DNA of 55,216 nucleotides from a candidate division FCPU426 bacterium (GTDB lineage Bacteria; Oederibacteriota; JAAXVQ01; JAUVAV01): NCBI GenBank assembly GCA_030637655.1, contig DAOWGI010000072.1, positions 1 through 55,216 on the forward strand. The letters run 5' to 3'. This document shows positions 3,992 to 36,049 of the stretch, piece by piece. Made by a program: the position numbers and the translations under genes. Each line of letters begins with the position of its first letter. Position 1 is the stretch's first letter. A model generated the notes under the pieces. The model saw only the letters and a program-made list of their open reading frames with translations, was not told the DNA's origin and did not search any database.

Positions 3992-4009
3992 ACTCCTTAT
4001 AAAAAATTC

Positions 4010-5257: not shown

Positions 5258-5274
5258 GTTTTCCCTGTTTCCCC

Positions 5275-9831: not shown

Positions 9832-10158
9832 TTATTTCATCTCCCACACGCTCACCGCGCCAATAGTATCCTGGCAGGTCGCTAATAATAATCCAAACCT
9901 ATTGGTTTTATCGATTTTCAAGGTCGAACATACTGTATCCAGATACCAGCCTTCGGGTAATAAGCCGATAAAAAAAGGAAACAACTCTTCGTTTTCATGG
10001 ATAGATTGATTAAAAGGCATTGATACGGAAATGGAAATTTTTTTTTCTAAAAAATGCTTATCATAACTAAAACGATAACCGCCCTCGATTTCTTCCAAAA
10101 CCCCGGCACGCTCGTTTTGATAACGAATTTCCGCCCTTCTAAATTTACTCCCTTTCAT
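9832..10158 (-). CDS. hipS: HipS-like antitoxin (HipA N-terminal/couple_hipA domain)
   Basis: AGVLEE, YRFSYD, ISVSMP, FPFFIGLLPEGW, DTIGAVSV. Lies between the HTH gene and the kinase gene. Confidence 0.85.
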   Translation of the reverse strand: MKGSKFRRAEIRYQNERAGVLEEIEGGYRFSYDKHFLEKKISISVSMPFNQSIHENEELFPFFIGLLPEGWYLDTVCSTLKIDKTNRFGLLLATCQDTIGAVSVWEMK

Positions 10159-10345
10159 TTTGCACAACCTCTAAATGATATCCAAAAAATTCCAAAACCT
10201 GATTTACTTTGTCCAAACGAACCGTGGGCTTATCCCTTTCCAGCTCTCGCACAAATCTCAGACCGATTCCACAACGTAGAGCAAATTCCTCTTGCGTTAA
10301 TTTAGCCTGTTTACGTAATTCACGCACTTTTTTTGCAATATTCAC
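10145..10345 (-). CDS. hipB: HipB-like XRE-family HTH regulator
   Basis: RKQAKLTQEEFALRCGIGLRFVRELERDKPTVRLDKVNQVL. GTG start after GGAG. Confidence 0.88.
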   Translation of the reverse strand: MNIAKKVRELRKQAKLTQEEFALRCGIGLRFVRELERDKPTVRLDKVNQVLEFFGYHLEVVQNERE

Positions 10346-10376
10346 TGTGGTTCTCCAATATTTTTATTAAATAATA

Positions 10377-10503
10377 AACCCTATAGGGTACAATATCAAG
10401 ATGTTTTTTATATATTATACCCGAAGGGGTACTTCCGGAGTCTATATTTACCCTTTCGGGTACATTTTAGCAAATTAATAAACAAACAAAACCCTATCGG
10501 GTA
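10377..10503. promoter_or_regulatory. Four palindromic operators WACCC-N4-GGGTA upstream of hipB
   Basis: AACCCTATAGGGTA (10377), TACCCGAAGGGGTA (10418), TACCCTTTCGGGTA (10449), AACCCTATCGGGTA (10490). Confidence 0.8.
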
Positions 10504-10704
10504 TATTTGTACTTTCGCGGAATAATGTGAAGGGTCCTTTTATTCGATTTATAGTTGGACTATTTGTTGAAGTAAAAGTAGCTGTCGCCGCCCAACCCTG
10601 TGATACAAGTAGGGAAAGCAGATCGATAGTCAATAATGAGACTATCCAGCCCATCTTGCTTTCTTTACTTTAGCGAATATGTATAATTATTAATATTCTT
10701 TGGT

Positions 10705-12203
10705 TTATTTGATCAATACAACCTTGCCGGTCACTCTTTTATTTTCCGCCTCAATTTGATAAATATATACCCCACCCTCGCACAACCGCCCGTTTTCGCT
10801 CCGGCCGTCCCAGGTTTTTTCATTGCGAATGGTTCTCACTACCTGTCCCCGAATATTCATGATGCGTATGGTAATCCCGGCATTGGTATCATGCAGCTGA
10901 AAGTTAAAATACACGGTTTGCCCTGCAGCCGGTATAAACGGATTGGGTGTGGCATAGCCTCCCTTGTGAAATGGTTCTACTGTCGGAGTCGTGTCCCTAA
11001 AAACCAAGGTACGATGATTATATGTATCAGAAACATAAATCAAGTCACTATCTGCCACAACATCCGATGGATAGAAAAGCGTGGTGGCGTTTAATTGCCC
11101 GCCCTTATTGCTTTTTTTATAAGCTATGGTTTTTTTTTTTGCCCGATTACCATGTCCGCCTGGGCATTGTTTGTCTCTGGAATGGTATTATAGATCAGCA
11201 CCCGGTTATTGGCCTGGTCTGCGATAAAGAGCCGGGTGTCCTGAATACATAGTCCGGCAGGTAAACAGAGCGTACGGCTGGTTGGGGGATAGTTAAAATA
11301 ATCCCATTCTTTCTGATCTCCAGACTGCTGATTGGGAGCACAGGAGTACATATCCGGCTGCCCGATGACAATATCCGCGCCGGCAAAATTGTTATTGGGA
11401 ATCGAACTATAGATCAACACCCGGTTATTAAATGAATCAGAGATAAAAAGGCGCTGATTATGATAATAAACCACATGCGGTTGATGCAATCCTTTCGGTC
11501 CGACATCCCCGTTATAATTATACCTTTTCCCGGAAAAATCCGGCTGCCCGATCACCACATCCGCCTGTGCATCATGCGTTGTGGGGATGTTGTTGAAGAT
11601 CAGTACGCGGTTATTATACGCGTCCGCGATAAATAATTTCTTACCGTCTGAAGCCACACACATGGGATAATACAAGGTATGGCTATCCGGCTCATCCAGG
11701 CCTTGGTTGGGAGAATTCGATTGCATATCATTCTGACCGATCACAATATCCGCTGAAGCGCCATTTGTGGTGGGAAGGTTATTATAGATCAACACCCGGT
11801 TGTTTTGAGCGTCTACTACAACTAATTTGTTGTCAGCGATAATCATTTTAGTCGGTTTACTCAACCGGTTTGCTTTAGGCGGATCCGCAATGGGAGATAA
11901 AGCATAATCTTCCCAGCCGATGACAATATCAGCGGCCGGATAACTTGCATAAGGCACGAGACTGTATATTAATATCCGTTGCCAATCAGTATCTGCAACA
12001 AACAATTGGGTGTCTGTCTTGAACAAACCTGTGGGTACTTTCAAATGATAGGCATCAAGCTGGTCAAGGCTGCTGGTAAAATCAGGCTGACCAATGACAA
12101 AATCAGCAGATTGGTTGTCAAAATAGGCCAAGGCCTTTAACGCCAATATATGCGAAATTATACAAGCAATAACCAGCAAGTACGTTCTTCTCACAAGTCC
12201 CAC
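10705..12203 (-). pseudogene. Secreted NHL-repeat beta-propeller protein with FlgD/T9SS-like C-terminal domain, split by a frameshift in an A11 run
   Basis: ORF 12203..11124 has a signal peptide and repeats of LFIADxxNNRVLIYN...ADIVIGQPD. After the A11 tract (11130-11140) another frame continues the repeat (TIAYKKSNKGGQLNATTLFYPSDVVADSDLIYVSDTYNHRTLVF) into ORF 11058..10705 (PNPF...WDGR...GVYIYQI...GKVVLIK). Confidence 0.85.
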
Positions 12204-12493
12204 CTTTTATGCCCACTATTTAAGCAATATTATTTTTCCGCAATAACAATTAAAATTTAGGTCAGATTATATTCTTTTTCATTGAAATGCACAAGAAAGA
12301 TGTTGATTTTTTTGGGCAATTCATTGGATGAAGTTCGTGGATTCAAGGTCTCAATGAGTAAGTTGAAAAGTTTAGAAATCGACCGTCAGAAACAGTATAT
12401 CCGTTTATTTTAGTTGATGCATTATATGAAAAAGGACGGATGGAGATATCCTGCCAGTGCAGTAATGGTGGCGTTTGGCGTAAATGAATCCGT

Positions 12494-12532
12494 AAAAACG
12501 GGGCGGATTTCCTTTGCTCGAAAATCCGCCCC
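12494..12532 (-). terminator. Rho-independent terminator closing the 21.2-12.5 kb gene run
   Basis: Minus strand GGGGCGGATTT-loop-AAATCCGCCCC followed by GTTTTT, just after the stop at 12545. Confidence 0.75.
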
Positions 12533-12544
12533 TAGGCGCCAAGC

Positions 12545-14968
12545 TTATTTCACTACCGCAATTTTGTTCCGCTGCACAAAATCTTTGGCGCGGATTTCCA
12601 GAATGTAGATGCCGCTGCTCACTTCATGGCTTAGCTCATTGGTCCCGTTCCAGGTATAGGTGTAAAATCCAGGAGCCAGCACTTGGTCTTTGACAATAGT
12701 CTTGATCCTTTCCCCAACCAAATTATACAAACTGACATTTACCGTACCACTCTGGCTGATATCAAGGTAAATATCGCAGGTTGAATTGTTGCGGTTGATC
12801 AGATTTTTCCTGACCCGGCAATCCATGCTATCCGGCGGCGCAACTCCCAGGATTAATTTTCTGGTCAGACTATAACTGGACCTCATGTCCAATTCATCTA
12901 TACTGTATGCCCGCCAATAGTATATTCCCGGCGATAAGTCTGTGATCTCCACCGCGGTTTCTGCATTATTCCCTGTTAAAGCAGTACTATTATATTCAGC
13001 TAGCAAATGATTGAGTTCCGGATCAGTATAAAGTTGATAAACCACGCTCCCTTTATTCGGCGCTGTTTCCGGGTTTTCTTGATAGGTGGCTGTCAAACGT
13101 ACTACTTTAACCTTCAAACTTGCGTCTGCTGCCGGACTGACCAGTTGCGGCGGATTAGCGTATTCTGCAGATAGTGTAAACTTTCTTGAAGCGCTAAAGT
13201 CGGATTTTATACCTTCCTGGTCCACACTATAGGCCCGCCAATAATATCGGCCTGGCGGTAAACCGCCCACGCTCACTGATGATTCCAAACCATGATCTAC
13301 CATGGTTTGCCCAATGAATTCTTTGACTTGCACAAACTCAGGATGAGAAGACACTTGATATGCCACCTTGCCTGGTTGAGGCGAATCAGGATTTTCATGA
13401 TATTTGGCGGTTAGCTTGACCACCTTGACAGCCAATGTTTTGTCAGCATGCGGACTGATTAATTGAGGCGATTCAGCATAAACCAGTTCTACTTTGGCGG
13501 GAGTGGTTTTTTCTGATGACAAACCCAGACTATCCACGCACCAGGCACGCCAGTAATAGATGCCATAGCTTTGAAATCCCTGATTAAGTTCTGCCCAATT
13601 TTTTTTGGAGTTCAGTACTTCACTGTAGGAGCCGGCTTCTATATTTGAAAAGTCCATAGACTTGCTGATTTCAATATAGATGCGGCCACGGGTAAGGGTT
13701 GGCGGCAGTTTTACTGAAAACTTCACTGCCCGGGATGGATAGTACTCACCGGATTTGGGTTTAATAATCTCAGGTTGATCCGGCTTGGGTATTTCGGGTA
13801 TATGGAAATATTTGCCGGCTTGAATTAACACTGACGGTATCTCAGACCCAGGAGAAAATATTTTGACTGTGCCGCCATTTTTTGCGCTTGTTGAGGTAGT
13901 CCATCCACCGCCTTTGCTGTAAATAAACCCATTAAACCATTCTTCCTGAACTTGGGGACAAAAAAGTAGTACACCGCCGCCGGCGCCATGACCACCATCG
14001 CTCCCGCGGCCACCGCGACCGCCACTTCCACCTTTACCTCCGCCATAAGAATGCCAACCCCAGTAGTCCTTCCATCCTGCTTCTTTGTGCCCCCCGGCTC
14101 CGCCATATCCGCCACTGCCCTGGCTGCCGGATTGGCCGGAAACATCAATTATGCCATGCATGATTAATTTTTTTGTGGCAAATAATTTAACCAATGAACC
14201 GCCATTTCCGCCTTTGCCGCCTCTGCCACCACTGCCGCCTCTGCCGCCATGTCCACCTACCTTATAACCAGCACCAATTCCACCGCCGCCGCCACCGCCG
14301 CCGCCGGCTCCACCACCGCCGGCTCCACCGGCTGAACCTCTGTAAACAGTCAAGTCGTTATTTCGTTTCTCAGTATTATCAGCAATACCAACATAGCCGC
14401 CATTTTGTCCTGAGCGTCCTATACCATGACCACCCCTTCCTCCACTTCCTCCTGATGCCCAGGTTGATGAACGACCGCCACTTCCATTATTGCCTGAATA
14501 ACCCCAGCCTCCCTCACCACCATATAGCCCCTCGCCTCTGCGACCCTGTGTTGCAGCCCCGCCGCTTCCTCCGGAGTTACCATCCCAATGGCCTGCTCTT
14601 CCTCTCGTACCACCGCCACCGCCAGGGGCTCCACTCGCTCCATCAAATCCTCTATACGCTCTGCCAACACCATCAATTTTTCCTTCCAGTACTATCTCAT
14701 TAGCATAGAGTTCCAAAGTACCGGTTGCTGAGAAGGTATTACCATTGTAGGTCTGTACAAATAAAGTTGCATCCTGTGCGATATGCACTTTATCGTAAAA
14801 CCACTTGCCATACTTGGTTTCAGTCCCGGATTCAAGCCTGAGTTCGCCTTCATAGATGCCGTCTTGATTTCCCGAATCGATATTGTTTGCTGCTGCCGAG
14901 ACCTGCCAATTACCTGCCAATCCCAATAGAGCTATACATGTTATTATTGTTTTAATATATGTTCTCAT
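12545..14968 (-). CDS. Secreted glycine-rich protein with three Ig/FN3-like repeats and a FlgD/T9SS-like C-terminal domain
   Basis: Signal peptide, a long GGxGGxG-rich region, three ~100-aa repeats each with GxYYWRA, and C-terminal LYNLVGERIKT...WNGTN...SSGIYILEI...KIAVVK. Its ATG overlaps the upstream stop (ATGA). Confidence 0.8.
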   Translation of the reverse strand: MRTYIKTIITCIALLGLAGNWQVSAAANNIDSGNQDGIYEGELRLESGTETKYGKWFYDKVHIAQDATLFVQTYNGNTFSATGTLELYANEIVLEGKIDGVGRAYRGFDGASGAPGGGGGTRGRAGHWDGNSGGSGGAATQGRRGEGLYGGEGGWGYSGNNGSGGRSSTWASGGSGGRGGHGIGRSGQNGGYVGIADNTEKRNNDLTVYRGSAGGAGGGGAGGGGGGGGGIGAGYKVGGHGGRGGSGGRGGKGGNGGSLVKLFATKKLIMHGIIDVSGQSGSQGSGGYGGAGGHKEAGWKDYWGWHSYGGGKGGSGGRGGRGSDGGHGAGGGVLLFCPQVQEEWFNGFIYSKGGGWTTSTSAKNGGTVKIFSPGSEIPSVLIQAGKYFHIPEIPKPDQPEIIKPKSGEYYPSRAVKFSVKLPPTLTRGRIYIEISKSMDFSNIEAGSYSEVLNSKKNWAELNQGFQSYGIYYWRAWCVDSLGLSSEKTTPAKVELVYAESPQLISPHADKTLAVKVVKLTAKYHENPDSPQPGKVAYQVSSHPEFVQVKEFIGQTMVDHGLESSVSVGGLPPGRYYWRAYSVDQEGIKSDFSASRKFTLSAEYANPPQLVSPAADASLKVKVVRLTATYQENPETAPNKGSVVYQLYTDPELNHLLAEYNSTALTGNNAETAVEITDLSPGIYYWRAYSIDELDMRSSYSLTRKLILGVAPPDSMDCRVRKNLINRNNSTCDIYLDISQSGTVNVSLYNLVGERIKTIVKDQVLAPGFYTYTWNGTNELSHEVSSGIYILEIRAKDFVQRNKIAVVK

Positions 14969-16275
14969 AATTCCTCCTCATTATTCTCCGTTTTAGCGTG
15001 TTTATATATAACCGCGCTTGGTTTTTTACCCAAATCACGGCTAATGCTTAAAACTTCTGCAATAGATTGCGAGACATTGGCCTCCTGAATACGAATGCCT
15101 GCCACTGCCTGGCCGGCTGCATTGACAATCACACCCTTGTATCCCACTTGTATTCCCTGGCTATGCCCGGCATTGAGCAGTACGCCTGATACCCGGCCGC
15201 CGGTTTTCTCCACTTGCAGAATTTGGGCAGGGATTTTATTAATAGCTTGGTCCGGTTGCTGAACCTGCTTGTGATAATTGGAAATATCCAGCTCTTGTTT
15301 GCCTTGAGCTTGTTTTTTATCTTTGGTTGTTTGCTCAGGCAATTTATTGATCACATAAGTCAGGCCGGCCCTATGCGTGTGGTTCAAAGCACCTGTCAGG
15401 TTAAAAGCATAATCCAATTGCATACCTTCCAAGCGAAGACCAACACCTAAGGTGAGCCCCTGGACGTCATGCCCAAATTTATATCCGCCGCGTATGGCCA
15501 CCTGATCCATTATCATGAGCTCTGCTCCAACCTGCTGTTGCCAGTTTTCCTGTAGATCGCATTGCACATCAGCTGCCAGCAAAAGCCCGAGTTTATCCCC
15601 TTCCAGTACCTGACACGCCGCGCCGGCAGAAGCAGTCAGGGGTAGATCAAAGGGTTGTTCCACATATTTCATGGGCGTGCCGATGTTTTTGATCACAGCA
15701 CCAATTGCAAGATTGTCCAACATGCTGTCCAATTGCCACCGAAATCCTATGTCTCCGGCAACTGACACGGCAGAATATTGGTCCAATAAAGTGGAATGAA
15801 GTAATTTGAGATTAATTCCCACATCAATCGGTTCATTTAAAAATCCGGATTTATATGCCAAGGTTATATTCGCTAAAATATCGCGCTGGGCATTAAAGCT
15901 CGAAATCCGCCCATTGGCATCGATCAGGTCAAATTGCCCGGCATCGTAAATGAGCACAGAACCACCCACAGCAAAGGTTTGGCTGAGATTGGCGGAATAA
16001 TTAAATGCCCCATACATGTCTTCCACCAGACCGCGATAAGCTACTGCAGATAATGCTTGTTGTTTGCTGTCTACCAAACCAGCGGGATTGTAACTTAAGG
16101 CCCCGTCCTGATTGACAATGGCTGCTGTCTGAGCACCGGCCATGCCATCAGCTCGCGGGCTAAAGTGGTTTTTCAAAATAACTCCTGAACTACTGCCATA
16201 ATCACCAGCTTGTGCCAATGAAATGGTCAAGCTAAAACCTATAAGTACTGCTGCACAACAAATTCTTTTTTTCAT
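14965..16275 (-). CDS. PorV/PorQ-family outer-membrane beta-barrel with C-terminal FlgT-C-like domain
   Basis: Signal peptide, SPRADGMAGAQTA...YNPAGL, NIGTPMKY, AIRGGYKFG, LDYAF...THRAGLTY. Extra tail VLLNAGHSQGIQVG. GGAGG RBS before ATG 16275. Confidence 0.78.
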   Translation of the reverse strand: MKKRICCAAVLIGFSLTISLAQAGDYGSSSGVILKNHFSPRADGMAGAQTAAIVNQDGALSYNPAGLVDSKQQALSAVAYRGLVEDMYGAFNYSANLSQTFAVGGSVLIYDAGQFDLIDANGRISSFNAQRDILANITLAYKSGFLNEPIDVGINLKLLHSTLLDQYSAVSVAGDIGFRWQLDSMLDNLAIGAVIKNIGTPMKYVEQPFDLPLTASAGAACQVLEGDKLGLLLAADVQCDLQENWQQQVGAELMIMDQVAIRGGYKFGHDVQGLTLGVGLRLEGMQLDYAFNLTGALNHTHRAGLTYVINKLPEQTTKDKKQAQGKQELDISNYHKQVQQPDQAINKIPAQILQVEKTGGRVSGVLLNAGHSQGIQVGYKGVIVNAAGQAVAGIRIQEANVSQSIAEVLSISRDLGKKPSAVIYKHAKTENNEEEL

Positions 16276-16300
16276 GGTTAGCACCTCCTGTAAGTTTTGT

Positions 16301-17413
16301 TTAACTGCCTAAGCGCGCATTCATTTTCAGGCGCTGTTCCCGGGCCTGCGAGTTCAGCGGAATGTGAATGTAGATATATAAAAAGGCCGCAACATCGATT
16401 TTTTCCTGTTCGGAATCAAATTTCGGATAGACCTGCTGCAAGGTATGAATCGTGGAAGCATCCAGGCAACCATTGATTTCAAGCTGATATCCGTAGAGAT
16501 TCAACCATTCCTGAGCCATGGCAATGGTTTCCCCAGAGGTTAGATAGGAATAATAATCAGCCAGTGCATTGAGTACGATCCGGTCCGGAGCCGCCTTGTC
16601 TCCGAGCAACCGCCAATAGGGGAGCATCAAATGCTTTCCCACAATCTGAATCATGGAAATCTCAACCAACACTCTCACTGCCGCATGCCGGCCTTGGACT
16701 TTTTTCACCATACCTTTGGCGCCAAAACTCTGTCCAAACAGACTAATACCCAGTTCACTGTCACCCATAACCTTATGCACTGCCATGGTATTAGTGGTAT
16801 TCATTTTGGAGATACCGGTCATGGTGCTAAAATCCAGGAGATTAAAATCCAAGGTGATCCTGGCCATACCTCGTTTTTCCGCCCCGCCATAGCGCATATC
16901 AAATCCTTTGGACGGCAGGCTATCCGGCAGACCGGTAAATTCCGCTTCTGCGTTCAGATCCGTATTGGAGCCGCGGACTTCCAGACCACGGTCAAACTCA
17001 GTAATCCCTCCGGACAAGATAACATCCGGGATCTCAATGCTATTGAAGCTGGAATACCCGGTTACCACCTGACTTTGCATAAAACCGGGATCATAGGGAA
17101 TAAACACCACTTTCCCACCGATTGAATTGAGCGTGCTTTTCATAATCTCGGTGATGTCACGCTGGACTTCCCCTCCGGTGGAAACGGAAGTGCCGGTACG
17201 ATCACCAATCGGCTGGCTCTGGATTTTCAACAGAGGTGTATCATAGATCTCACTCATCATCCCAAGATCATTCAGAGCCGGTGTATAGTTGGTGGTTTTA
17301 ATCTCAGGCGCTGACTCCGGCAAACTGACATCCAGACGTCTGGGATCAAGTGTGGTACAGCCCGAAATTACACACATAAGCCATACTAGTGTTAATTTGA
17401 ATATGATCTTCAT
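16301..17413 (-). CDS. CsgG/HfaB-like outer-membrane lipoprotein with C-terminal peptidoglycan-binding-like domain
   Basis: Lipobox VISG|C. IGDRTG resembles the CsgG DxTG motif; also ILSGGITEFD, ITLDFNLLD, AAVRVLVE. Tail AQEWLNLYGYQLEINGCLDASTIHTLQ resembles PG_binding_1. GGAGG RBS before ATG 17413. Confidence 0.72.
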   Translation of the reverse strand: MKIIFKLTLVWLMCVISGCTTLDPRRLDVSLPESAPEIKTTNYTPALNDLGMMSEIYDTPLLKIQSQPIGDRTGTSVSTGGEVQRDITEIMKSTLNSIGGKVVFIPYDPGFMQSQVVTGYSSFNSIEIPDVILSGGITEFDRGLEVRGSNTDLNAEAEFTGLPDSLPSKGFDMRYGGAEKRGMARITLDFNLLDFSTMTGISKMNTTNTMAVHKVMGDSELGISLFGQSFGAKGMVKKVQGRHAAVRVLVEISMIQIVGKHLMLPYWRLLGDKAAPDRIVLNALADYYSYLTSGETIAMAQEWLNLYGYQLEINGCLDASTIHTLQQVYPKFDSEQEKIDVAAFLYIYIHIPLNSQAREQRLKMNARLGS

Positions 17414-17454
17414 GAGTACACCTCCTGTCCTGTTCGTCGTACTAGTGATCCTTT

Positions 17455-17871
17455 TCATTTGTCCACCACCACATTGATCACCGTGTCGATTTTGCTGCCA
17501 GGTTCGATTACAATGCTGTTCTCATTGTTGTCAACCTTGTCATCGCAATAATTGAGACGTAAATCTTTTTTAGCGTTTCGCGCATTTTTGTCTGCCTGGT
17601 TATCAGTTTTTTTATCTTCCTGATCAGTCTGCAAACCTTCTTTGATTTTGCGCATAGCTTGGTATCTTGAGGCTTTGGCTTTGCCAATAGCATATGTGAT
17701 GATGTAATTAATATTGGTATCTTTGTCCCCCAGTTTGTCGTCCGTCGCAATGGGCTCGTCTTTAAACTCTGAAATACCGTCCTTAAAATCATTGGCCCAA
17801 GCCGATGCTACTCCAATCAGAACTATCGCAATCATCATGGCCGGCATTTTATTACAACCTGATTTCAGCAT
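17455..17871 (-). CDS. Small secreted hypothetical protein, possible fibre assembly or adaptor factor
   Basis: Signal peptide ending AWA|ND, a charged middle, and a beta-prone tail NENSIVIEPGSKIDTVINVVVDK. Located between the repeat genes and the CsgG-like gene. Confidence 0.7.
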   Translation of the reverse strand: MLKSGCNKMPAMMIAIVLIGVASAWANDFKDGISEFKDEPIATDDKLGDKDTNINYIITYAIGKAKASRYQAMRKIKEGLQTDQEDKKTDNQADKNARNAKKDLRLNYCDDKVDNNENSIVIEPGSKIDTVINVVVDK

Positions 17872-17913
17872 GATTCACCTTCTTCTGGTTTTCTCAGCAC
17901 ATCCGGAACGGTT

Positions 17914-17938
17914 GATAACCGCCCCGGATGCGGTTATC
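17914..17938 (-). terminator. Stem-loop directly after the 167-aa repeat gene (partial terminator or mRNA stabiliser)
   Basis: GATAACCGC-7nt-GCGGTTATC, with no long U-tract. Confidence 0.5.
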
Positions 17939-17945
17939 CTAGTAT

Positions 17946-18449
17946 TTATTCGATGCAAATTGATCCCATGTTAGCCTCAGCGTCTTTCCCGATCGCTGCA
18001 TTGACTACTTCCTTGGCATTGACATCGTTGCTAATCAAACCCGTTACTTCAGCATTTACAATGTCAATAGAACCCATATTGGCTTTAGCATCCTTACCAA
18101 TTGCTGCATTGACTCCTTTTTCAATTTTGACCTTGTTCATCACAGTTCCTTTGATCTCGCTATTCTCCAAGCTGATGGAACCCATATTGGCCACAGCATC
18201 TTTACCAATCGCTGCATTTACCACTTCCTTCAACTGCACTTTGTTGCTGACCACACCTTCACTACCCACGCTGGTGTTCTTCAGCTTAACTGCCCCCATG
18301 TTGGCGATAGCATCTTTACCAATGGCCGCATTCACACCTTTCTCAATATCCGCTTTGTTGGTAATGTCACCTTTCAATTCCAATTTGGCCCAGCCGGCCC
18401 CGGCCATTCCCAAACTGATCATCATGGTGAGTAAAATTATTTTTTTCAT
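17946..18449 (-). CDS. Secreted 167-aa repeat protein (4 x ~36-aa NAAIGKDAxANMG repeats), putative beta-solenoid fibre subunit
   Basis: AAGGAG RBS and ATG 18449. Signal peptide ending GWA|K. Four copies of VNAAIGKDAxANMG(S/A) spaced 38/36/36 aa. The mature part lacks Pro and aromatic residues. Confidence 0.8.
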   Translation of the reverse strand: MKKIILLTMMISLGMAGAGWAKLELKGDITNKADIEKGVNAAIGKDAIANMGAVKLKNTSVGSEGVVSNKVQLKEVVNAAIGKDAVANMGSISLENSEIKGTVMNKVKIEKGVNAAIGKDAKANMGSIDIVNAEVTGLISNDVNAKEVVNAAIGKDAEANMGSICIE

Positions 18450-18517
18450 TTTGAAGCTCCTTGTATTATTTTTCTTTTCTACGGCATACGCCGCACTCAT
18501 GCTGTCTTACTTCGCAT

Positions 18518-20143
18518 TCATTTAAAAACCACTGAGTCTTTATTGGATTGACCACCTCCTGTCGAAATATTCACATTTTGTGCGCTGACATCCGCAAACG
18601 GCATTTTGATGCTGTTAATCACCACTCCGGTTGCAGAGGTATTCATCGCCGCACCCCCGCTGTTTGAATTTTTCATCACCACGGATCCCAAGTTGGCTGA
18701 GCTGCCGGATCCTACCGCTATGTTGGTCGCCGTGACTCCGGTGACAGCATTCATGATCATGCCGTTGTACTCACTGTCTTCCAGAACCACAGACGCCAAA
18801 TTGGCTTCCACGTCTGATCCCACGGCAATGTTGGTCAAGACCGCGCCGGCTGCCACGTTTATGACAGTTCCATTCAAAGTACTGTCTTCCATTTTGAGTG
18901 CTGTCAGATTGGCGGTTGCTCCCTGGCCGATCGCAATATTGGTCGAAAGTCCGGCAGCATTGGCATTGAGTACACAGCCCATAACCTGGCTGTCTTGCAT
19001 ACTGACCGCGGCCTGATTTGCCTCTACATCGCTGCCAATGGCAATATTGGTCAGCAAACCTGCAGCCTGGACATTGACCACATTACCAATCAATTCGCTG
19101 TCATACATAGAAACTACGGCCTGATTCGCTCTAACCTCATTGCCGATTCCTATATTGGTTACCAATCCCCCTGCCTGGGCATTGACCACATTACCAATCA
19201 ATTCACTCTCATTCATGGACACTGCAGCCTGATTCGCTCTAACCTCATTGCCGATTCCTATATTGGTTACCAATCCCCCTGCCTGGGCATTGACCACATT
19301 ACCAATCAATTCACTCTCATTCATGGACACTGCAGCCTGATTGGCTTTCACCTCATTGCCGATCCCAATATTGGTTAAAAGCCCGCCGGCTTGCGCATTC
19401 ACCACATTACCGGTAAGTGCGCTGTCATCACGCATTTCAACTGCAGCCTGAGCAGCTGACACTTCATTGCCTATACCGAGATTGGTCAAAAAACCGCCTG
19501 CCTGGACATTGACCACATTTCCCGTGATTTGACTGTCTTGAACAATGGTGGAATTCTGATTGGCAGCAATCGATTTTCCGATACCAATGTTTGTAATTAG
19601 ACCGCCAACCTGAGCGTTGATTACATTGCCCTGAACCCGGCTGTTTTGAAAATGCGAGGACGTCTGACGAGCCGATACTTCACTTCCGATTCCAATATTG
19701 GTGATGAGTTTTCCAGTAGAGCTGTTGACCACATTTTGAATTTCGCTGTCATCGAGCATAGTGCTGTTCTGGATGACCTCAATATCATTTCCGATACCAA
19801 CATTGAGCTGCAAATCACCTTGGGCTTGATTGACAATATTCCCCTTAACCTTACTTCCACCCGTTATACTGCTGTGCATAAAATGGGCTTTGGTTTTATT
19901 GCCTACCGCAACATTGATTTGGCTATTGGTCTGATTACTATGAACAATATTCTTTTCTATTTCGCTGTCTTGCACAACAATACTTTCCTTGGATGATTCT
20001 GAATCTTTACCGAGAGCAGCATTGATTTGTTTATCTCTAGAAAATGAATTGATCACATCACCTTTGATCTTGCTCTTAGCTGTCGTAAGTACGGGCATCC
20101 CGGTTATCATAATGATCAGTACAATGATCGTTTGAGTACGCAT
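18518..20143 (-). CDS. Secreted 541-aa repeat protein (13 full plus 1 partial ~36-aa repeats), putative beta-solenoid fibre subunit or nucleator
   Basis: Signal peptide, then repeats of consensus GNVVNAQAGGLxTNIGIGxEVxANQAAVSMxDSEL. N/Q/G/A/V/S-rich, with no Pro within the repeats. Confidence 0.82.
   Translation of the reverse strand: MRTQTIIVLIIMITGMPVLTTAKSKIKGDVINSFSRDKQINAALGKDSESSKESIVVQDSEIEKNIVHSNQTNSQINVAVGNKTKAHFMHSSITGGSKVKGNIVNQAQGDLQLNVGIGNDIEVIQNSTMLDDSEIQNVVNSSTGKLITNIGIGSEVSARQTSSHFQNSRVQGNVINAQVGGLITNIGIGKSIAANQNSTIVQDSQITGNVVNVQAGGFLTNLGIGNEVSAAQAAVEMRDDSALTGNVVNAQAGGLLTNIGIGNEVKANQAAVSMNESELIGNVVNAQAGGLVTNIGIGNEVRANQAAVSMNESELIGNVVNAQAGGLVTNIGIGNEVRANQAVVSMYDSELIGNVVNVQAAGLLTNIAIGSDVEANQAAVSMQDSQVMGCVLNANAAGLSTNIAIGQGATANLTALKMEDSTLNGTVINVAAGAVLTNIAVGSDVEANLASVVLEDSEYNGMIMNAVTGVTATNIAVGSGSSANLGSVVMKNSNSGGAAMNTSATGVVINSIKMPFADVSAQNVNISTGGGQSNKDSVVFK
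19119..19342. repeat. Exact in-frame 108-bp tandem duplication inside the 541-aa repeat gene
   Basis: 19119..19226 equals 19227..19334, and identity runs on to 19342. 108 bp is 36 codons. Confidence 0.9.
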
Positions 20144-20239
20144 GGCATATTCCTTTTTAAGTTTTTATCCTCTTCAAAACCGGTTTAGAAGCTTTACTCT
20201 CATCCACTCTCTTTTTGCTTTCACAGGTACTGATGAAGC

Positions 20240-20282
20240 ACAGAGAACTTTATTTCAGGGAACCTAAAATAAAGTTCTCTGT
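20240..20282 (-). other. 20-bp RNA hairpin between the ECF module and the repeat genes
   Basis: Minus strand ACAGAGAACTTTATTTTAGG-TTC-CCTGAAATAAAGTTCTCTGT. The single mismatch is a U-G wobble only on the minus-strand RNA. Confidence 0.7.
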
Positions 20283-20512
20283 TACAATGTTGCCACCATC
20301 AATCTTACTTGTTCCCATTTCTGTTCCGGATTCTGATCAGGTTTCTCCGAAATTTCAATCAGCTGACTCAGTACGGTATTTCGTTTGGCCATTGCGATCC
20401 ATTGCTTTCCGATTTCCGTCTTTTCCGTGGTTACCGCGTTTTTATAAACCAGTTTGGTAAACAGATGCCAGAATCCCAACAATTCTCTTTTTGCCTGTGA
20501 TTTATAGTTCAT
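20282..20512 (-). CDS. Small hypothetical protein downstream of the ECF sigma factor
   Basis: AAGGAG RBS before ATG 20512 gives 76 aa, helical-looking. No clear TM or HxxxCxxC anti-sigma motif. Confidence 0.5.
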   Translation of the reverse strand: MNYKSQAKRELLGFWHLFTKLVYKNAVTTEKTEIGKQWIAMAKRNTVLSQLIEISEKPDQNPEQKWEQVRLMVATL

Positions 20513-20556
20513 GGCCGCATCTCCTTGGGATAGTGTGTTCATTTCTTTCTCACCAA

Positions 20557-21207
20557 CTAACACGCAATTCTGTACCGCAAGTTCAGTTGACTCTTTGCAC
20601 CGGCAATCAACGCTTCCCGAGGACGGACAAATTGTTCCTGAATCATCCTGGCCATCATTTCTTTTGCGCGCATCAAATGCAGGCCAATGGCTCGCACGGG
20701 TCTGCGCAACAGGCCGGCGGTTTCTTTGTAGGTACGATCTTCCAGATAGGTTTTTTTCACTGCTTCATAATAAATTTCCGGCAACTGCTCAATGACTTCA
20801 TGTAATTGATCTTTTTCTTCATTAAGCACGACTTGTTCTTCCGGATTTGAACTCTTGCAAGGCAGGACTTCTTCTAAGGGCGTGTATTGCTCCGAATTCA
20901 CATAACTTAATTCGCGCAGCTTTTTACGTTTTCTGAACAATTCATTGCATTCATTGATCGCGACACGCTTGATCCACGACCACAATTTAGCTTCTCCGCG
21001 AAAATTAAATATTTTACCTTGTATAAGAATCTTCAAAAACACTTCCTGCGCCACGTCTTGTCCGTCTTCCGGCGAATGTAAATGCCGGCTGCACAAATTA
21101 ACAATGCTCTCGTGATAACGGCCATAAATCTCTTCTCCTGCTGCTGTGTTTCCCTGGCGTAAGTCATTAATTAATTCCTGGTCTGTAAGTTCTTTTAGAT
21201 CTTTCAT
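20557..21207 (-). CDS. ECF-type RNA polymerase sigma-70 factor
   Basis: TDQELI, DGQDVAQEVFLK, FRGEAKLWSWIKRVAIN (region 2) and IEQLPEIYYEAV...TYKETAGLL (region 4). Confidence 0.9.
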   Translation of the reverse strand: MKDLKELTDQELINDLRQGNTAAGEEIYGRYHESIVNLCSRHLHSPEDGQDVAQEVFLKILIQGKIFNFRGEAKLWSWIKRVAINECNELFRKRKKLRELSYVNSEQYTPLEEVLPCKSSNPEEQVVLNEEKDQLHEVIEQLPEIYYEAVKKTYLEDRTYKETAGLLRRPVRAIGLHLMRAKEMMARMIQEQFVRPREALIAGAKSQLNLRYRIAC

Positions 21208-21248
21208 GCTTCACCCCCGGCTTTTTTTAACTGCATGTCTAAGAGTAA

Positions 21249-21265
21249 AGCAAGCTACATGCCAA
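21249..21265 (-). promoter_or_regulatory. Sigma-54 (-24/-12) promoter of the ECF sigma gene
   Basis: Minus strand TTGGCATGTAGCTTGCT: GG and GC separated by exactly 10 nt, about 40 nt upstream of ATG 21207. Confidence 0.8.
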
Positions 21266-21336
21266 TTTCGGTGAACACGATAAGTCCTGTTTTTATTGGG
21301 TTTTCTAATTCAGGAGGTTTACAACGAGGCTTATTG

Positions 21337-21378
21337 TTGATAGGAAATACTATCAAAGTAATAGTAGGAACTAACAAT
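21337..21378. promoter_or_regulatory. Candidate tandem enhancer (bEBP upstream activating) sites
   Basis: Perfect TTGATAG-N6-CTATCAA (21337-21356) plus an adjacent imperfect TAATAG-N6-CTAACA, roughly 100-140 bp upstream of the predicted sigma-54 start. Confidence 0.6.
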
Positions 21379-21551
21379 ATAAAATAAAAGCAAATACGAA
21401 TATCGAAACAAATCAAAAATTTGAAATTCTAAACATCTTTGATCGGATATTTTTCAATTTGGTCTTTTATCACTGTTGTCCAAGTCAGCTGCGTACCGTG
21501 TTATAAGTTGGGGAATGTATCATGTCAGTAAACTGCAGTTAAACAGAGGTT

Positions 21552-21623
21552 GTCATTCCCGAGGGTTTAATCGGGAATCTGGTTTTTTAAACCGTATCCC
21601 CGATACAAGCATTCGGGGATGAC
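21552..21623. repeat. (C)GTC-type double-hairpin palindromic repeat
   Basis: GTCATTCCCGA..TCGGGAATCTGG...ATCCCCGA..TCGGGGATGAC. Same architecture at 45689, 51084 and 53172. Confidence 0.75.
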
Positions 21624-21912
21624 AGGGTGGGATCAGCATTCAGGGATGACAAACAAAAAAACGCATGACTGACCTGTTACAAAAAAACGTTTCAGTGACA
21701 TGATACCTACTAAGTCTGGACAATACCGTAATAATATAATATTCTGGTGAGTAATTATGGAGCCCCACGGGCAAGCCCGTGGTACCCAGAATACCCGGCT
21801 TCGCCGTGGTTATCCGCCCAAGTGGTGGGGGCGACATCACGCCATAGCGGCTTGCGCATTCATCTTAGGCCTTGGCCGGGGTCTTCTGCGAAGGCGGATA
21901 AAGGGTAGGTTT

Positions 21913-23706
21913 ATGAGAATAAAAAATGTTTTTCATCCTGAAATATGGATTCCAGTAGTGCTGTTAATTCTGGGTTCGCTTCCGTTTGTTTTTACCAACC
22001 TGGATTTAGATCTGCAAAAGCTCCTGTACCGCGACGGCTGGTTTCTAGGCAGCCGTCAGCCCTGGTTTGCCTTATACCAGGCTGGGACTTTTCCAGGTCT
22101 GATCCTCGCCGCTTTAGCTCTGGTCGTACTGATCGGCGCCTGGATCTGGCCCAAACTACAATTCCAACGTCGTGCTGCGGCACTGGTTGTGCTTACTCTG
22201 ATTATCGGTCCAGGACTCTTAGTCAACGCGCTCGGCAAAGAATACTGGGGCCGGCCACGGCCGCGCGACGTGGTTGAATTTAATGGTTCACAAAAATTCC
22301 ACCGCATCACTGAACCTGGAGTTCCAGGACGCGGGAAATCCTTTCCCTGCGGACATGCCTCCGTCGGTTTTTTATTTGTCAGCTTATACTTTATTACCAG
22401 AAATAAAAAACTTAAGTGGTCCCTGCTCGGATTGGGGCTGACCTATGGAACACTTATGGGCTTGGGACGTATGACCCAGGGCGCTCATTTTGCTTCGGAT
22501 GTGCTCTGGTCCGGAGGTTTGGTGTATTTAACTGCAGCAGTTTTGCATCATGTGGTGCTCCCTGAAACCAAACCAACGCGTACACTGGCCCAAGAAACAC
22601 CGGATCCCGGAAAAAAAACCATGGCCGGGATGCTCCTGGGTGGTGGATTATGCGCTCTAACTGCCTTCTTTTTACTGGCCACACCCTATTATAAGCAATG
22701 GTCGGATACCATCGCTGCGATTCCCAATATTAAAACCATCACCTTCCGATTCCCTCCCGGCAAGGAGGATATTCATATTATTCATGCTGAGCAGGATGTT
22801 CTGGTCATTGCCAAAGCGGAATTGCGGGGTTTTGGTTTCCCAAAATTGCATTTGTCCGGAGAATTACACAGCCAGGTGCAAGGCACCACCTGCACGGCTT
22901 CACTCTCACTCTCGTTTGACCGCATTACCACTGAACGTTTGGGTATTATTCAATTTTTCATTCGTAAGGATCTGAAACTTATACTACAGCAGGATAACGT
23001 GAATCGTCACATACGCATTGGTAAAAATTCATTGCCCGGACTCTACGGAAAGCTTCAACTTTCAGGTCAAAAAGCAGATTTTGTTTTCCGGCCAATGCGC
23101 GGTTCCCTAATTCAAGGGCCAATCCATTTATCCTCACAGCAAGGAGATATCCGGGTAGTCTGCGAAGAGCTGTATGATCCCGGACCTTTTCTCTGGGATC
23201 TCAAAACAGACTGTGGTACCATTTTAATAGAAACCACGCAACATCAAGCGCCAGTGCAACCTATGCGGCTGCGCGCGCATTCCGATACCGGCGAAGTGGC
23301 GTACCAGGGCATTATTAGTCCGGAATGTGGATTGCACCTGCAATGGGATGCCGGTGCCGGCCGCTCCAGCTTGCATGCCAAAGGACACTGGCAGCCGGAA
23401 GACAATCAGGTAATCGGACCCACCGGTACCGGCAAGCCACATATGAAAATATCGCTCTCAACCGTATCCGGTATCATTGGAATAAAAATCAAGCAAGGTA
23501 AAGGCGACCCGGTTGCTGCCATACCTGCACCCACAGCCGGACCAACGCGAGAATCTGCGTTTGAAATACCGCCTCCTGATCCTACACCCACACAGCCGCC
23601 TTTGGTATGGATTGAAAAAGAATTTATAGGGATACCCAAAAAGAAGCCGGCGCAACCGCGAAGTCCGTTTGAAGTAACGCCCGAAGTCAACCTCAAGACG
23701 AAATAG
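21913..23706 (+). CDS. PAP2-family membrane phosphatase fused to a large C-terminal soluble beta-rich (DUF4097-like) region
   Basis: KEYWGRPRP, SFPCGH and RMTQGAHFASDV motifs with multiple TMs. Start set at ATG 21913 because the upstream extension runs through repeat DNA. Confidence 0.82.
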   Translation: MRIKNVFHPEIWIPVVLLILGSLPFVFTNLDLDLQKLLYRDGWFLGSRQPWFALYQAGTFPGLILAALALVVLIGAWIWPKLQFQRRAAALVVLTLIIGPGLLVNALGKEYWGRPRPRDVVEFNGSQKFHRITEPGVPGRGKSFPCGHASVGFLFVSLYFITRNKKLKWSLLGLGLTYGTLMGLGRMTQGAHFASDVLWSGGLVYLTAAVLHHVVLPETKPTRTLAQETPDPGKKTMAGMLLGGGLCALTAFFLLATPYYKQWSDTIAAIPNIKTITFRFPPGKEDIHIIHAEQDVLVIAKAELRGFGFPKLHLSGELHSQVQGTTCTASLSLSFDRITTERLGIIQFFIRKDLKLILQQDNVNRHIRIGKNSLPGLYGKLQLSGQKADFVFRPMRGSLIQGPIHLSSQQGDIRVVCEELYDPGPFLWDLKTDCGTILIETTQHQAPVQPMRLRAHSDTGEVAYQGIISPECGLHLQWDAGAGRSSLHAKGHWQPEDNQVIGPTGTGKPHMKISLSTVSGIIGIKIKQGKGDPVAAIPAPTAGPTRESAFEIPPPDPTPTQPPLVWIEKEFIGIPKKKPAQPRSPFEVTPEVNLKTK

Positions 23707-34153: not shown

Positions 34154-34184
34154 AACCTTTCGCTATTGCAGGACTCCCGGGACA

Positions 34185-34943: not shown

Positions 34944-34949
34944 ACACCA

Positions 34950-35780: not shown

Positions 35781-36049
35781 CAGCTGGTAAATATTCCTTT
35801 CTTAAAACTACGCACAGGCTTTTCCACAACCAAACTGAATTCAATTTTATAATATTACGTGATTTTAAACAATATGTAATATTAAAATACCCCGCCCAAA
35901 GTGGCATTTTGCCCGATTATTCCTTTTCAGGCCGGCCGGCATTTTTTTTATACTTATGTATTTACTCCCAACACGGTTCAACCGTTACTATTGACAGTAT
36001 ATAAAAGCAGACAGCCGACCAGCCGGCCGGTACCAGTACCGAGGAACTC

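Follow-up and report, generated by a model that had tools for sequence, protein, structure and literature searches.

The closest described systems share individual traits with the locus analyzed here. In curli of E. coli, a CsgG-fold outer-membrane lipoprotein is found beside Sec-dependent tandem-repeat proteins, which are rich in Asn, Gly, Ala and Ser, come as two subunit types and vary in repeat number. In the Fap system (FapB/FapC with FapF), secreted imperfect-repeat subunits form a nucleator/major pair and a dedicated outer-membrane exporter is present. The holdfast anchor of Caulobacter (HfaA/HfaB/HfaD) represents a non-curli use of a CsgG-family lipoprotein with small secreted partners. 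HfaB is a CsgG homologue, and this system is not known to include a 36-aa repeat protein. Autotransporter and TPS adhesins involve long right-handed parallel beta-helices, and type IX secretion of Bacteroidota combines a PorV/PorQ-family barrel with a protein carrying a T9SS-type sorting domain.

The window (the whole stretch of 55,216 nucleotides that was analyzed) carries eight co-oriented ORFs on the minus strand. A sigma-54-type site (21249-21264) precedes them, and a strong terminator (12500-12532) follows. An earlier note on this DNA had described eight co-oriented genes running from a sigma-54 promoter to a terminator, and all eight ORFs were recovered. Four of them form the core of the present analysis:

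18518..20143, minus strand: RepA, a secreted protein of 541 aa that contains about 14 units of the 36-aa repeat
17946..18449, minus strand: RepB, a secreted protein of 167 aa; its 4 units of the 36-aa repeat run flush to the ends, and its tail reads ...ANMGSICIE
17455..17871, minus strand: P138, a small acidic secreted protein of 138 aa, present in 74 of 80 related loci
16301..17458, minus strand: outer-membrane lipoprotein of predicted CsgG fold (AF2 model compared by Foldseek and VIA; the likely start gives 370 aa)

When related loci were collected with the lipoprotein as seed (n = 80), repeat proteins were present in 72 and P138 in 74 of them, and the order RepA-type, RepB-type, P138, lipoprotein was kept. 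Among the eight loci lacking repeats, the contig ends just upstream in five, and no repeat gene was found nearby in the other three (L060, L072, L078). The reverse comparison covered 47 repeat-seeded loci from metagenomes, each with 1800 nt or more of downstream flank. Here, the lipoprotein was found in 36 and P138 in 37 loci, so that the co-occurrence of repeat and lipoprotein subfamily, which had been suggested as a test, was observed in both directions (72/80 and 36/47). In the remaining 11 loci, no lipoprotein lies within 5 kb, and six of them carry repeats of a subfamily whose tail differs. The link between repeat and channel is therefore not strict. The eight genes had been proposed to act as one system, but the ECF sigma factor, the barrel and the CTD protein each occur in only a few of the 80 loci. 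The conserved unit is smaller and consists of RepA, RepB, P138 and the lipoprotein. A second module copy in this genome includes lipoprotein, domain protein, barrel and CTD protein. LPP20-family genes accompany some variants of the module. The gene set is widely conserved; no description of it was found in the literature, and it is apparently undescribed.

The 36-aa repeat that had been claimed to be common to the 541-aa and the 167-aa proteins was confirmed by their self-identity at offset 36 (0.39 for RepA, 0.30 for RepB), compared with 0.12-0.20 at offsets that are not multiples of this period. Across relatives, the repeat count varies between 2 and 33 per protein and the lengths reach 1698 aa. 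In this genome, the repeat profile matched four ORFs, all of them inside the two module copies. RepA ends with a conserved C-terminal cap (...SNKDSVVFK), and homologues that share this tail are encoded upstream of RepB-type genes in related loci. The complete ORF of RepB encodes 184 aa (17946-18500); counted from the MKKIIL start, which a signal peptide follows, the protein has 167 aa. In the related loci, the RepB-type tail is carried by the ORF directly upstream of P138, and in proteins of this type the repeat runs flush to both ends without caps.

A stretch of the locus repeat, N-x-G-x-G-N-x-V-x3-Q, is reminiscent of the curlin motif. Nevertheless, Curlin_rpt matched none of 17 RepA homologues, none of the locus proteins and nothing in the genome, which agrees with the proposal of a new repeat type. 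The curlin repeat measures about 20 aa (PMC12822426), compared with 36 aa in the locus. For Fap subunits, section 7 of the same source gives exactly three repeats in almost all cases, whereas relatives of the module carry 2-33 per protein. The exporter also differs, since Fap employs the FapF barrel and the locus a CsgG-type lipoprotein, and none of the eight locus proteins matched the Fap families in Pfam at an E-value of 0.01 or better. In these respects the locus differs from both curli and Fap, in line with the earlier note, which had matched it to neither.

Structure prediction of the subunits had been suggested with the expectation of a beta-solenoid, and the AF2 model of RepA (pLDDT 84.9, pTM 0.85) is all-beta. 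In VIA-wide comparison, it aligned to the Vag8 passenger (7akv_G) over 360 residues with a Z-score of 24.3 and an rmsd of 4.4 A, and further matches were pertactin (Z 20.0), EtpA (19.9), TibA (18.4) and Ag43 (17.4). According to this model, RepA is a three-sided right-handed parallel beta-helix of the autotransporter type and does not adopt the curlin fold. The similarity to autotransporter and TPS adhesins (Z 24.3 to 17.4, 260-360 residues) comes with only 8-11% sequence identity. Unlike these adhesins, RepA has neither a C-terminal translocator barrel nor a TPS domain, its export partner would be the CsgG-fold lipoprotein, and its repeat keeps a strict 36-aa period.

The 36-aa repeats of the proposed fibre were confirmed, but the predicted beta-helix makes an amyloid-like fibre just one of two readings. 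On the other reading, the repeat proteins are exported and remain single beta-helical adhesin rods instead of polymerizing. Structurally, RepA comes closest to monomeric passengers and TPS adhesins (Vag8, Z 24.3), such passengers do not polymerize, and RepA-type proteins carry the conserved C-terminal cap. Moreover, a single chain suffices for a long rod, since up to 1698 aa with 33 repeats were found. However, RepB-type proteins are uncapped with repeats flush at both ends, and curli subunits are likewise flush-ended and uncapped. Two subunit types in fixed order with an adjoining CsgG-like gene also follow the CsgB/CsgA logic. Taking both sides, we consider single rods somewhat unlikely.

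The lipoprotein belongs to a family for which 892 homologues were found; its database form has 370 aa and its lipobox (ISGC) contains a Cys that is invariant across 30 homologues. It had been described as CsgG-like, and this description holds for the predicted fold but not for the sequence. There was no match to Pfam CsgG or among PDB sequences, and the PF03783 (CsgG) search, which gave a match in the Caulobacter control genome, retrieved another gene of this genome and not the module lipoprotein. When the AF2 model (pLDDT 79.9) was searched with Foldseek, CsgG was the best match (6l7c_A, E 2.8e-10; CsgG chains 2.8e-10 to 1.6e-6), with PelC and FlgT well behind at about 5e-4. VIA aligned CsgG over 182-210 residues, long hairpins included, with Z-scores of 13.8 to 12.5, and other matches were FlgT (12.9), XCC0632/DUF330 (12.4), the LPHT ring (12.2) and PelC (11.8). 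Since FlgT, DUF330 and PelC, which are not channels, lie within about 2 Z of CsgG, the channel reading rests on the predicted hairpins, in which hydrophobic residues alternate. Compared with curli, the protein falls below Pfam CsgG detection and has an extra wall-binding-like domain. The wall anchor that had been claimed for the pore was weakly detected as a PG_binding_1-like C-terminal helical domain in 15 of 30 homologues.

The same model could also describe a wall-anchored component of the periplasm, a ring or scaffold akin to PelC, FlgT or LPP20, with the repeat proteins as a structural layer that stays in the periplasm or lines the outer membrane from the inside. The alpha/beta core aligns to FlgT, DUF330, LPHT and PelC nearly as well and with lower rmsd, and both the wall-binding-like domain and the LPP20-family genes beside some module variants fit such a ring. 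Against it, Foldseek sets CsgG (1e-10 to 1e-6) apart from PelC/FlgT (about 5e-4), alignments covering at least 200 residues including the long hairpins were obtained with CsgG only, and the hairpins show membrane-strand-like alternation. In addition, long uncapped beta-helices would be hazardous in the periplasm. We regard the ring as quite improbable.

In the 74 loci that carry it, P138 has the repeat gene on one side and the lipoprotein gene on the other. Its start is probably at 17847, which gives 130 aa, and the alignment of its homologues shows two conserved blocks. It is a member of no known family, and none of 22 P138 family members matched CsgE, CsgF or CsgC in Pfam. CsgE, CsgF and the curlin repeat were also searched for in the genome and none was found, which is in line with the absence of CsgE/F proposed before and separates the locus from curli.

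Based on gene content, the shared repeat, fold predictions and the co-occurrence counts, we infer that the four genes constitute a curli-like (type VIII) export module with its own cargo, and we favor this reading moderately. The probable outcome is a surface-exposed rod or fibre of a new, beta-helical kind. Sec would take the repeat proteins and P138, all of which carry signal peptides, across the inner membrane, and oligomers of the lipoprotein would form a beta-barrel channel in the outer membrane, held to the cell wall by the C-terminal helical domain. The repeat proteins would travel through this channel unfolded. Folding outside the cell would then turn them into rods, right-handed beta-helices that repeat every 36 residues. 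By analogy with autotransporters, it is plausible that extracellular folding drives export. RepB occurs universally and its ends are flush and uncapped, which suggests a basal or self-stacking unit; RepA is optional, long and C-terminally capped, which suggests the main rod or a distal piece. For stacking of the rods into fibres, we consider the chances about even. P138 would be a dedicated factor that assists at the pore or at the rod base, comparable to CsgF or CsgB.

Three elements would have been added to the module in this lineage. One is an ECF sigma gene preceded by a sigma-54 promoter. The other two, a PorV-like barrel whose periplasmic domain is specific to the module and a CTD protein that varies, are encoded downstream of the lipoprotein:

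14965..16284, minus strand: PorV/PorQ-family barrel with a module-specific C-terminal domain (NF033709, 126.5 bits)
12545..14968, minus strand: 807-aa secreted protein with a Gly-rich N-terminal part and three Fn3/PhoD_N-like modules; its C-terminal domain is of the T9SS type

Both had been named correctly in the earlier note. The barrel (residues 1 to about 310, followed by the C-terminal domain at about 314-427) exceeds the NF033709 cut-off of 90 bits, and the tail of the Gly-rich protein scored 8e-23 against a CTD profile made from this genome and just below the cut-off of TIGR04183 (22.2 vs 23 bits). This arrangement resembles type IX secretion, but the locus barrel stays far under the equivalog cut-offs for PorV (50.3/250 bits) and PorQ (81.1/220 bits) and bears the added domain. 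Moreover, the genome contains 32 such barrels, mostly one-to-one with CTD proteins. SprA and GldM gave no match in the genome, and PorU gave one through its CTD part only; as the controls gave no match either, these components may still be present.

The ECF sigma factor, the barrel and the Gly-rich protein are lineage-specific. A barrel follows the lipoprotein in 4 of the 80 loci and in both copies of this genome, the Gly-rich protein has a weak relative in one locus, and an ECF sigma gene lies directly upstream in one (L006), with any match in three. It is possible, though less likely than not, that the three are mere neighbors, a PorV/CTD cassette and an unrelated regulator that share the transcription unit by chance and have no role in the repeat-protein pathway. 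PorV/CTD cassettes are common in this genome, with 32 PorV-like ORFs, 60 CTD proteins and a same-strand CTD neighbor within 300 nt for 20 of the 32 barrels. The cargo at this position differs between relatives (FG-GAP, Kelch, unknown or Gly-rich), and the module of L001 and L003 has neither barrel nor cargo at its end. The C-terminal domain of the barrel argues otherwise. It is missing from the other 30 PorV-like ORFs, its sole further occurrence in the genome is in the ORF that directly follows the second copy of the lipoprotein, and in relatives it is found exclusively just downstream of the lipoprotein gene (after 9/9 tail-less short lipoproteins and 0/67 tailed ones). The second copy repeats the layout of lipoprotein, domain protein, barrel and CTD protein, and the gaps in the locus are short (16 nt between lipoprotein and barrel, -4 nt, a 4-nt overlap, between barrel and CTD protein). 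On sequence grounds, the barrel appears tied to the module via this domain, which is restricted to the lipoprotein neighborhood.

Upstream of RepA and behind the last gene, the following features were found:

21249..21264, minus strand: sigma-54-type promoter-like site TGGCATGTAGCTTGCT, 42 nt 5' of the sigma gene ATG
20557..21207, minus strand: ECF-type sigma factor, 216 aa (Sigma70_r2 1.4e-10, Sigma70_r4_2 7.6e-10, Sigma70_ECF)
20282..20563, minus strand: 93-aa ORF overlapping the sigma gene stop, a putative gene with no family match
20240..20282, minus strand: hairpin with 20-nt arms (95% complementary) and a 3-nt loop, between the 93-aa ORF and RepA
12500..12532, minus strand: terminator-like hairpin of the intrinsic type, 13 pairs (8 G-C) and a T run, 13 nt past the last stop codon

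The site TGGCATGTAGCTTGCT is the sole match to TGGCAYN5TTGCW in the window; 0.22 matches are expected in shuffled sequence and 19 of 100 shuffles gave at least one. Genome-wide there are 15 such sites, 10 of them followed at a distance of 10-250 nt by the start of an ORF on the same strand, and the genome encodes RpoN. The sigma factor scored 76 bits against TIGR02937 (cut-off 42.9). From these elements we infer a putative sigma-54 to ECF cascade over the locus, which is plausible. The ECF step is tentative, since a conserved promoter was looked for upstream of RepA and none was seen. The 93-aa ORF matched no family in Pfam or the curated profiles and has no homologue in the 80 related loci or the rest of the genome; as a candidate gene, it possibly encodes an anti-sigma factor or regulator. 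The hairpin in front of RepA has no T tract behind it and may act in attenuation, as a processing site or as an operator.

Eight co-oriented ORFs lie on the minus strand between a sigma-54-type site and a terminator with a 13-bp stem 3' of the last gene, and this arrangement, which the earlier note had read from the sequence, was confirmed. The features are as follows:

21249-21264: sigma-54-type site, TGGCATGTAGCTTGCT, 42 nt 5' of the ATG of the sigma gene
20557-21207, minus: ECF sigma gene (ORF and family profiles)
20282-20563, minus: 93-aa ORF
18518-20143, minus: RepA, secreted repeat protein of 541 aa (ORF)
17946-18449, minus: RepB, secreted repeat protein of 167 aa (184-aa ORF, in which the signal peptide begins at MKKIIL)
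17455-17871, minus: P138, secreted protein of 138 aa (ORF)
16301-17458, minus: lipoprotein (ORF)
14965-16284, minus: PorV/PorQ-family barrel (ORF and NF033709)
12545-14968, minus: Gly-rich protein of 807 aa (ORF)

The intergenic spacing is short, with 16 nt between the lipoprotein and barrel genes and an overlap of 4 nt between the genes of the barrel and the 807-aa protein. For RepA, RepB, P138, the lipoprotein and the 93-aa ORF, no significant family was found in Pfam or NCBIfam, and an Rfam search of 10000-22500 gave no match.

The lipoprotein carries the lipobox ISGC and its Cys19 is invariant across 30 homologues, which identifies a lipoprotein signal. Its family is large and strongly conserved: of 5188 candidates, 892 proteins reached E 0.001 or better, with an identity of 54-66% among the matches listed. 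When we searched Pfam including the CsgG family (PF03783), we obtained no match at E 0.01 or better, and neither the single sequence nor a profile of the 30 homologues matched any PDB sequence, CsgG chains included. Searching the whole genome with PF03783 yielded a sole match (C111:5051-5263), which is a gene other than that of the lipoprotein. Weak CsgG matches were observed for six of the 30 homologues (best E 0.002).

An AF2 model of the lipoprotein was calculated from 30 homologues (pLDDT 79.9). The earlier note had made its proposal depend on a CsgG fold of this protein, and in Foldseek the predicted model matched CsgG first. Here, the top matches were all CsgG (6l7c_A, E 2.8e-10; 4uv3_A, E 7.1e-9) and were followed by PelC (E 5e-4) and FlgT (E 6.6e-4). 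With VIA-align, CsgG aligned over 182-210 residues with Z 13.8 to 12.5 (rmsd 6.3-8.2 A), and the non-channel relatives FlgT (Z 12.9), DUF330 (Z 12.4) and PelC (Z 11.8) aligned over the core domain only. The predicted model has the fold of a CsgG protomer, which consists of an alpha/beta periplasmic domain and two long beta-hairpins, and along the long hairpins hydrophobic and polar residues alternate. On the basis of this model, we conclude that the lipoprotein has a CsgG-like fold, and a channel function is predicted.

The C-terminal part of the lipoprotein (about 100 residues) is confidently helical in the model (pLDDT >90). A PG_binding_1 domain (PF01471) was not found in the lipoprotein of the window, and 15 of the 30 homologues gave weak matches (best E 1.4e-4). 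In 67 of 82 homologues (e.g., P0041, P0022), the protein ends with a long Pro/Ala-rich linker and an acidic-aromatic tail G-R-x-L-S-D-E-E-W (general form G-R-x-L...[DE]-W). The lipoprotein of the window's lineage lacks this linker and tail, and a downstream domain protein is found in their place. The idea that the C-terminal domain of the barrel corresponds to a "DUF4384" domain fused to the long lipoprotein homologues was rejected, since the long forms end in the linker and the short tail and have no folded domain.

The repeat proteins were characterized by self-comparison. RepA had a self-identity of 0.39 at an offset of 36 residues, 0.32 at 72 and 0.27 at 108, and for RepB a value of 0.30 was obtained at 36. 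The period of 36 residues is clear, with about 14 units in register for RepA and four for RepB. Both ends of mature RepB are flush with the repeat, and the C-terminus of RepA-type proteins is formed by a conserved cap (about 45 residues), which was modeled with low confidence. Asn, Val, Gly, Ala and Ser are abundant in RepA and RepB, each of which contains one Cys and lacks Trp. A word-based homologue search with RepB gave only eight weak and short matches; the repeats have few exact words in common. The curlin repeat (PF07012) was found neither in RepA and RepB nor in any of 17 RepA homologues, and a genome-wide search was also negative, with a positive E. coli control. Pentapeptide matches in 8 of the 17 RepA homologues and a match to DUF5669 were judged to be low-complexity resemblance.

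Structure prediction of RepA, a check that the earlier note had named, gave an all-beta model (17 homologues, pLDDT 84.9, pTM 0.85) in which the pattern of strands repeats with a period of 36 residues. Foldseek of this model against the PDB returned no match at E 0.001 or better, and the RepA sequence found nothing meaningful among PDB chains. VIA-wide, the sole method giving solenoid matches, placed the model among right-handed parallel beta-helices. The best alignment was that with the Vag8 passenger (Z 24.3, rmsd 4.4 A, 360 residues aligned), and the next matches were pertactin (Z 20.0) and EtpA (Z 19.9), followed by TibA, Ag43 and a beta-helical antifreeze protein. As to the fibre that had been proposed, RepA is predicted to form a beta-helical rod, but a fibre is one of two readings of this predicted rod.

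A divergent subfamily of the repeat was observed in six metagenome loci (L127, L137, L139, L149, L153, L155). These proteins have 600-885 aa and the tail ...TSNSASVSSD, and P138 and the CsgG-like gene are absent within 5 kb.

The small, acidic P138 has two conserved blocks, of which the N-terminal one reads DLDDGIS...D..GKKD.NINFIV and the C-terminal one GDNNENSVV.GPGS.V..VINI. In our own reading, the C-terminal block appears to resemble a strand of the repeat. When 22 members of the P138 family were searched, none of them matched CsgC, and CsgE and CsgF were not matched at E 1 or better. The CsgE and CsgF profiles (PF10627, PF10614) were also silent in the genome searched (91.6% complete), with a positive E. 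coli control. In a protein atlas, P138 and the Gly-rich N-terminal part of the 807-aa protein retrieved unnamed clusters only. A complex prediction with three copies only of the lipoprotein core and mature P138 yielded scores of 0.39, 0.07 and 0.19, compared with a mark of 0.32. With the predicted fold matching CsgG and the curlin, CsgE and CsgF profiles silent, the core of the original proposal holds: RepA, RepB, P138 and the lipoprotein would constitute an undescribed CsgG-type export module, which carries a new repeat cargo and is without recognizable CsgE and CsgF.

When species-representative genomes were scanned with the lipoprotein, at least 189 were found to encode a relative, and these genomes belong to Desulfobacterota, Nitrospirota, Nitrospinota and other anaerobic sediment lineages. 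The best 80 loci of these were analyzed; their sources are Desulfobacterota, Nitrospirota, Nitrospinaceae, Elusimicrobia, Scalindua and Geomonas. We searched the window proteins against all ORFs of the 80 loci and found matches for the lipoprotein in 80/80 loci, for P138 in 74/80, for RepB in 72/80 and for RepA in 71/80. The corresponding numbers were 7/80 for the barrel, 3/80 for sigma and 1/80 for the 807-aa protein. Thus, the system described as having eight genes shrinks to a conserved extent of three to four. The co-occurrence of repeat and lipoprotein, which the earlier note had put forward as a check, was found: a repeat profile detected repeats in 72 of the 80 loci, in 112 proteins with 2-33 repeats each (median 7). 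Five of the eight repeat-less loci are truncated by a contig end just upstream and three (L060, L072, L078) have other neighbors.

The order of the genes is constant and begins with an optional long RepA-type gene (tail ...TSNKNSVVxK), after which come a RepB-type gene (tail ...ANMGSVxxE), P138 and the lipoprotein. In 64 of 72 loci, the repeat genes lie upstream of the lipoprotein gene; 35 loci carry a single repeat ORF, another 35 carry two and the remaining two carry more. In the reverse test, RepB-type seeds led to 78 loci in metagenome contigs, of which 47 had at least 1800 nt 3' of the last repeat ORF. Among these assessable loci, the lipoprotein was present in 36 and P138 in 37. The 11 misses include L115, which has the alternative gene order and is cut by the flank, and six with repeats of a subfamily that has a different tail, the partner being absent within 5 kb. 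L060, L072, L078 and L115 show a variant arrangement. Downstream of the lipoprotein, they carry the gene of an LPP20-family protein (about 250 aa) together with a small ORF (about 100 aa), and the repeat genes are missing or several kb off.

The repeat profile matched only four ORFs in the genome to which the window belongs; two of them lie in the window, and the other two are part of a second module copy:

C95:20120-27356, minus: RepA-type gene (truncated at the contig end), RepB-type gene, P138-like gene, lipoprotein, 201-aa domain protein, separate PorV-like barrel and 877-aa CTD protein

Within the window's phylum, the lipoprotein was detected in 6 of 99 species genomes, all of one order.

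The barrel scored 126.5 bits with NF033709 (cut-off 90, residues 36-310), which assigns it to the PorV/PorQ family, and remained far below the cut-offs of the PorV/PorQ equivalogs NF033710 (50.3 vs 250 bits) and NF033711 (81.1 vs 220 bits). The 807-aa protein scored 22.2 bits with TIGR04183, just below the cut-off of 23 (E 9.9e-5, residues 732-804), and matched a CTD profile built from proteins of this genome with E 8e-23. Its PDB sequence search yielded a marginal FlgD-like tail match only. PorV/CTD pairs are a general feature of the genome, which encodes 32 PorV-like ORFs along with 60 CTD proteins; for 20 of the 32 barrels, a CTD gene lies within 300 nt on the same strand (for instance at C7:29376-32377, C97:4288-8552, C99:709-4544 and C114:1693-5798). 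SprA/Sov and GldM (TIGR04189, TIGR03517) were not matched in the genome, which is 91.6% complete, and the control genomes were equally silent. The PorU profile (NF033707) matched 34 places, only over its last ~100 positions, which represent the CTD. The pairs look like a one-barrel-per-cargo display system outside the canonical T9SS.

The C-terminal domain of the barrel (residues ~314-427) links it to the module. Elsewhere in the genome, this domain is found only in the 201-aa ORF right after the second lipoprotein copy, and in relatives it occurs only directly 3' of the lipoprotein gene, either fused to a barrel (L006, L008, L010, L025) or as a stand-alone ORF of about 200 aa (L001, L003, L023). 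All nine short tail-less lipoproteins have the domain downstream, compared with none of the 67 that carry the Pro/Ala linker and tail, and six lipoproteins have neither. The CTD cargo behind the barrel varies across relatives (FG-GAP, Kelch or an unknown protein) and is Gly-rich in the window. The barrel is a lineage-specific yet genuinely linked addition to the module, and the CTD cargo and sigma are variable.

A further CTD gene in the window appears to be interrupted. At 10705-12203 (minus), a 359-aa NHL-repeat ORF and a 117-aa ORF (NHL remnant and CTD) are separated by 66 nt, as if a single NHL+CTD gene had been split. The genome contains full-length paralogues at C36:114267-117071 and C39:60704-63550.

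Curli and Fap operons across GTDB, including those of Desulfobacterota and Nitrospirota, are covered by a 2025 review, whose curli calls, according to the portion of its text consulted, required CsgA/B repeat homologues detected by curli HMMs (PMC12822426). Since it lacks the curlin repeat by Pfam, the module is probably not among the curli operons of that review, as far as this portion goes. NanoporeDB, as described in the part of the source consulted, is a structure-based catalogue of CsgG-like pores without operon context (PMC13397529). Our literature searches on CsgG-like proteins, on CsgG together with DUF4384 and on DUF4384, as well as broader ones, found no account of the module, and a search on PorV/CTD proteins outside Bacteroidetes returned no paper.

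A joint reading, to which we assign a low probability, would make the module a second widespread type VIII-like branch. In this case, the CsgG-fold channel would export self-templating beta-helices of 36-residue repeats, which would join end to end to form a non-curlin surface fibre, P138 would act as pore-coupled nucleator, and in the cold-seep lineage the channel would also be wired to the PorV-like barrel via a dedicated periplasmic domain. If true, fibre machinery and T9SS-independent CTD display would be combined in one hybrid surface apparatus.

CsgG-type channels are familiar chiefly through curli and nanopore sequencing. A lipoprotein family of 55-65% identity with its own cargo and helper protein would show that the CsgG export principle serves a different class of surface polymer, and it would offer new pore scaffolds and a strictly periodic beta-helix building block of 2-33 repeats. 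The product is a candidate matrix or adhesion structure of the organisms dominating biofilms in seeps and sediments. A separate question, raised by PorV/CTD pairs in a genome where no T9SS machinery is visible, is by which route CTD proteins reach the surface outside Bacteroidota.

As to regulation, the sigma gene scored 76 bits with TIGR02937 (cut-off 42.9) and matched both Sigma70_r2 and Sigma70_r4_2, which identifies an ECF sigma. The site upstream of it has the sequence features of a sigma-54 promoter (GG-N10-GC core, TGGCAC-N5-TTGCW) and a suitable placement, RpoN is encoded on contig C15, and an NtrC-type activator is present at 2588-3991 (activator and sensor kinase together span 2588-5257 in the window). 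A strict sigma-54 pattern occurs at 15 sites in the 3.28-Mb genome, and because 10 of these sit 10-250 nt 5' of a same-strand ORF start, the putative site upstream of the sigma gene is credible. Of 55 assessable loci from other lineages, 6 have a sigma-54-like site within 350 nt 5' of their first repeat gene, against a background of 13 such sites in 981,676 nt. The step from the ECF sigma to the structural genes is one that we infer, and an alignment of the regions upstream of RepA from five loci revealed no conserved promoter. A near-perfect hairpin with 20-nt arms (20240-20282) is located directly after the stop of the 93-aa ORF and before RepA. It lacks a T tract and could serve as an attenuator, as a processing site or as an operator.

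Direct repeats are present at 21550-21704, 290-450 nt 5' of the sigma-54 site, in a divergent intergenic region shared with a PAP2 gene. Here, AGCATTCGGGGATGACA occurs twice, 27 nt apart, together with an inverted partner, and ACAAAAAAACG... occurs twice, 26 nt apart; judged by their sequence, these repeats may be activator binding sites. On the operon's strand, the stretch 2588-7407 of the window encodes the NtrC-type sigma-54 activator, the histidine kinase and a 710-aa protein that has a periplasmic domain of the phosphonate-binding type, and two PAS-GGDEF-EAL proteins are encoded further on (32315-37903). The products of all these genes are candidate inputs for the control of a surface structure.
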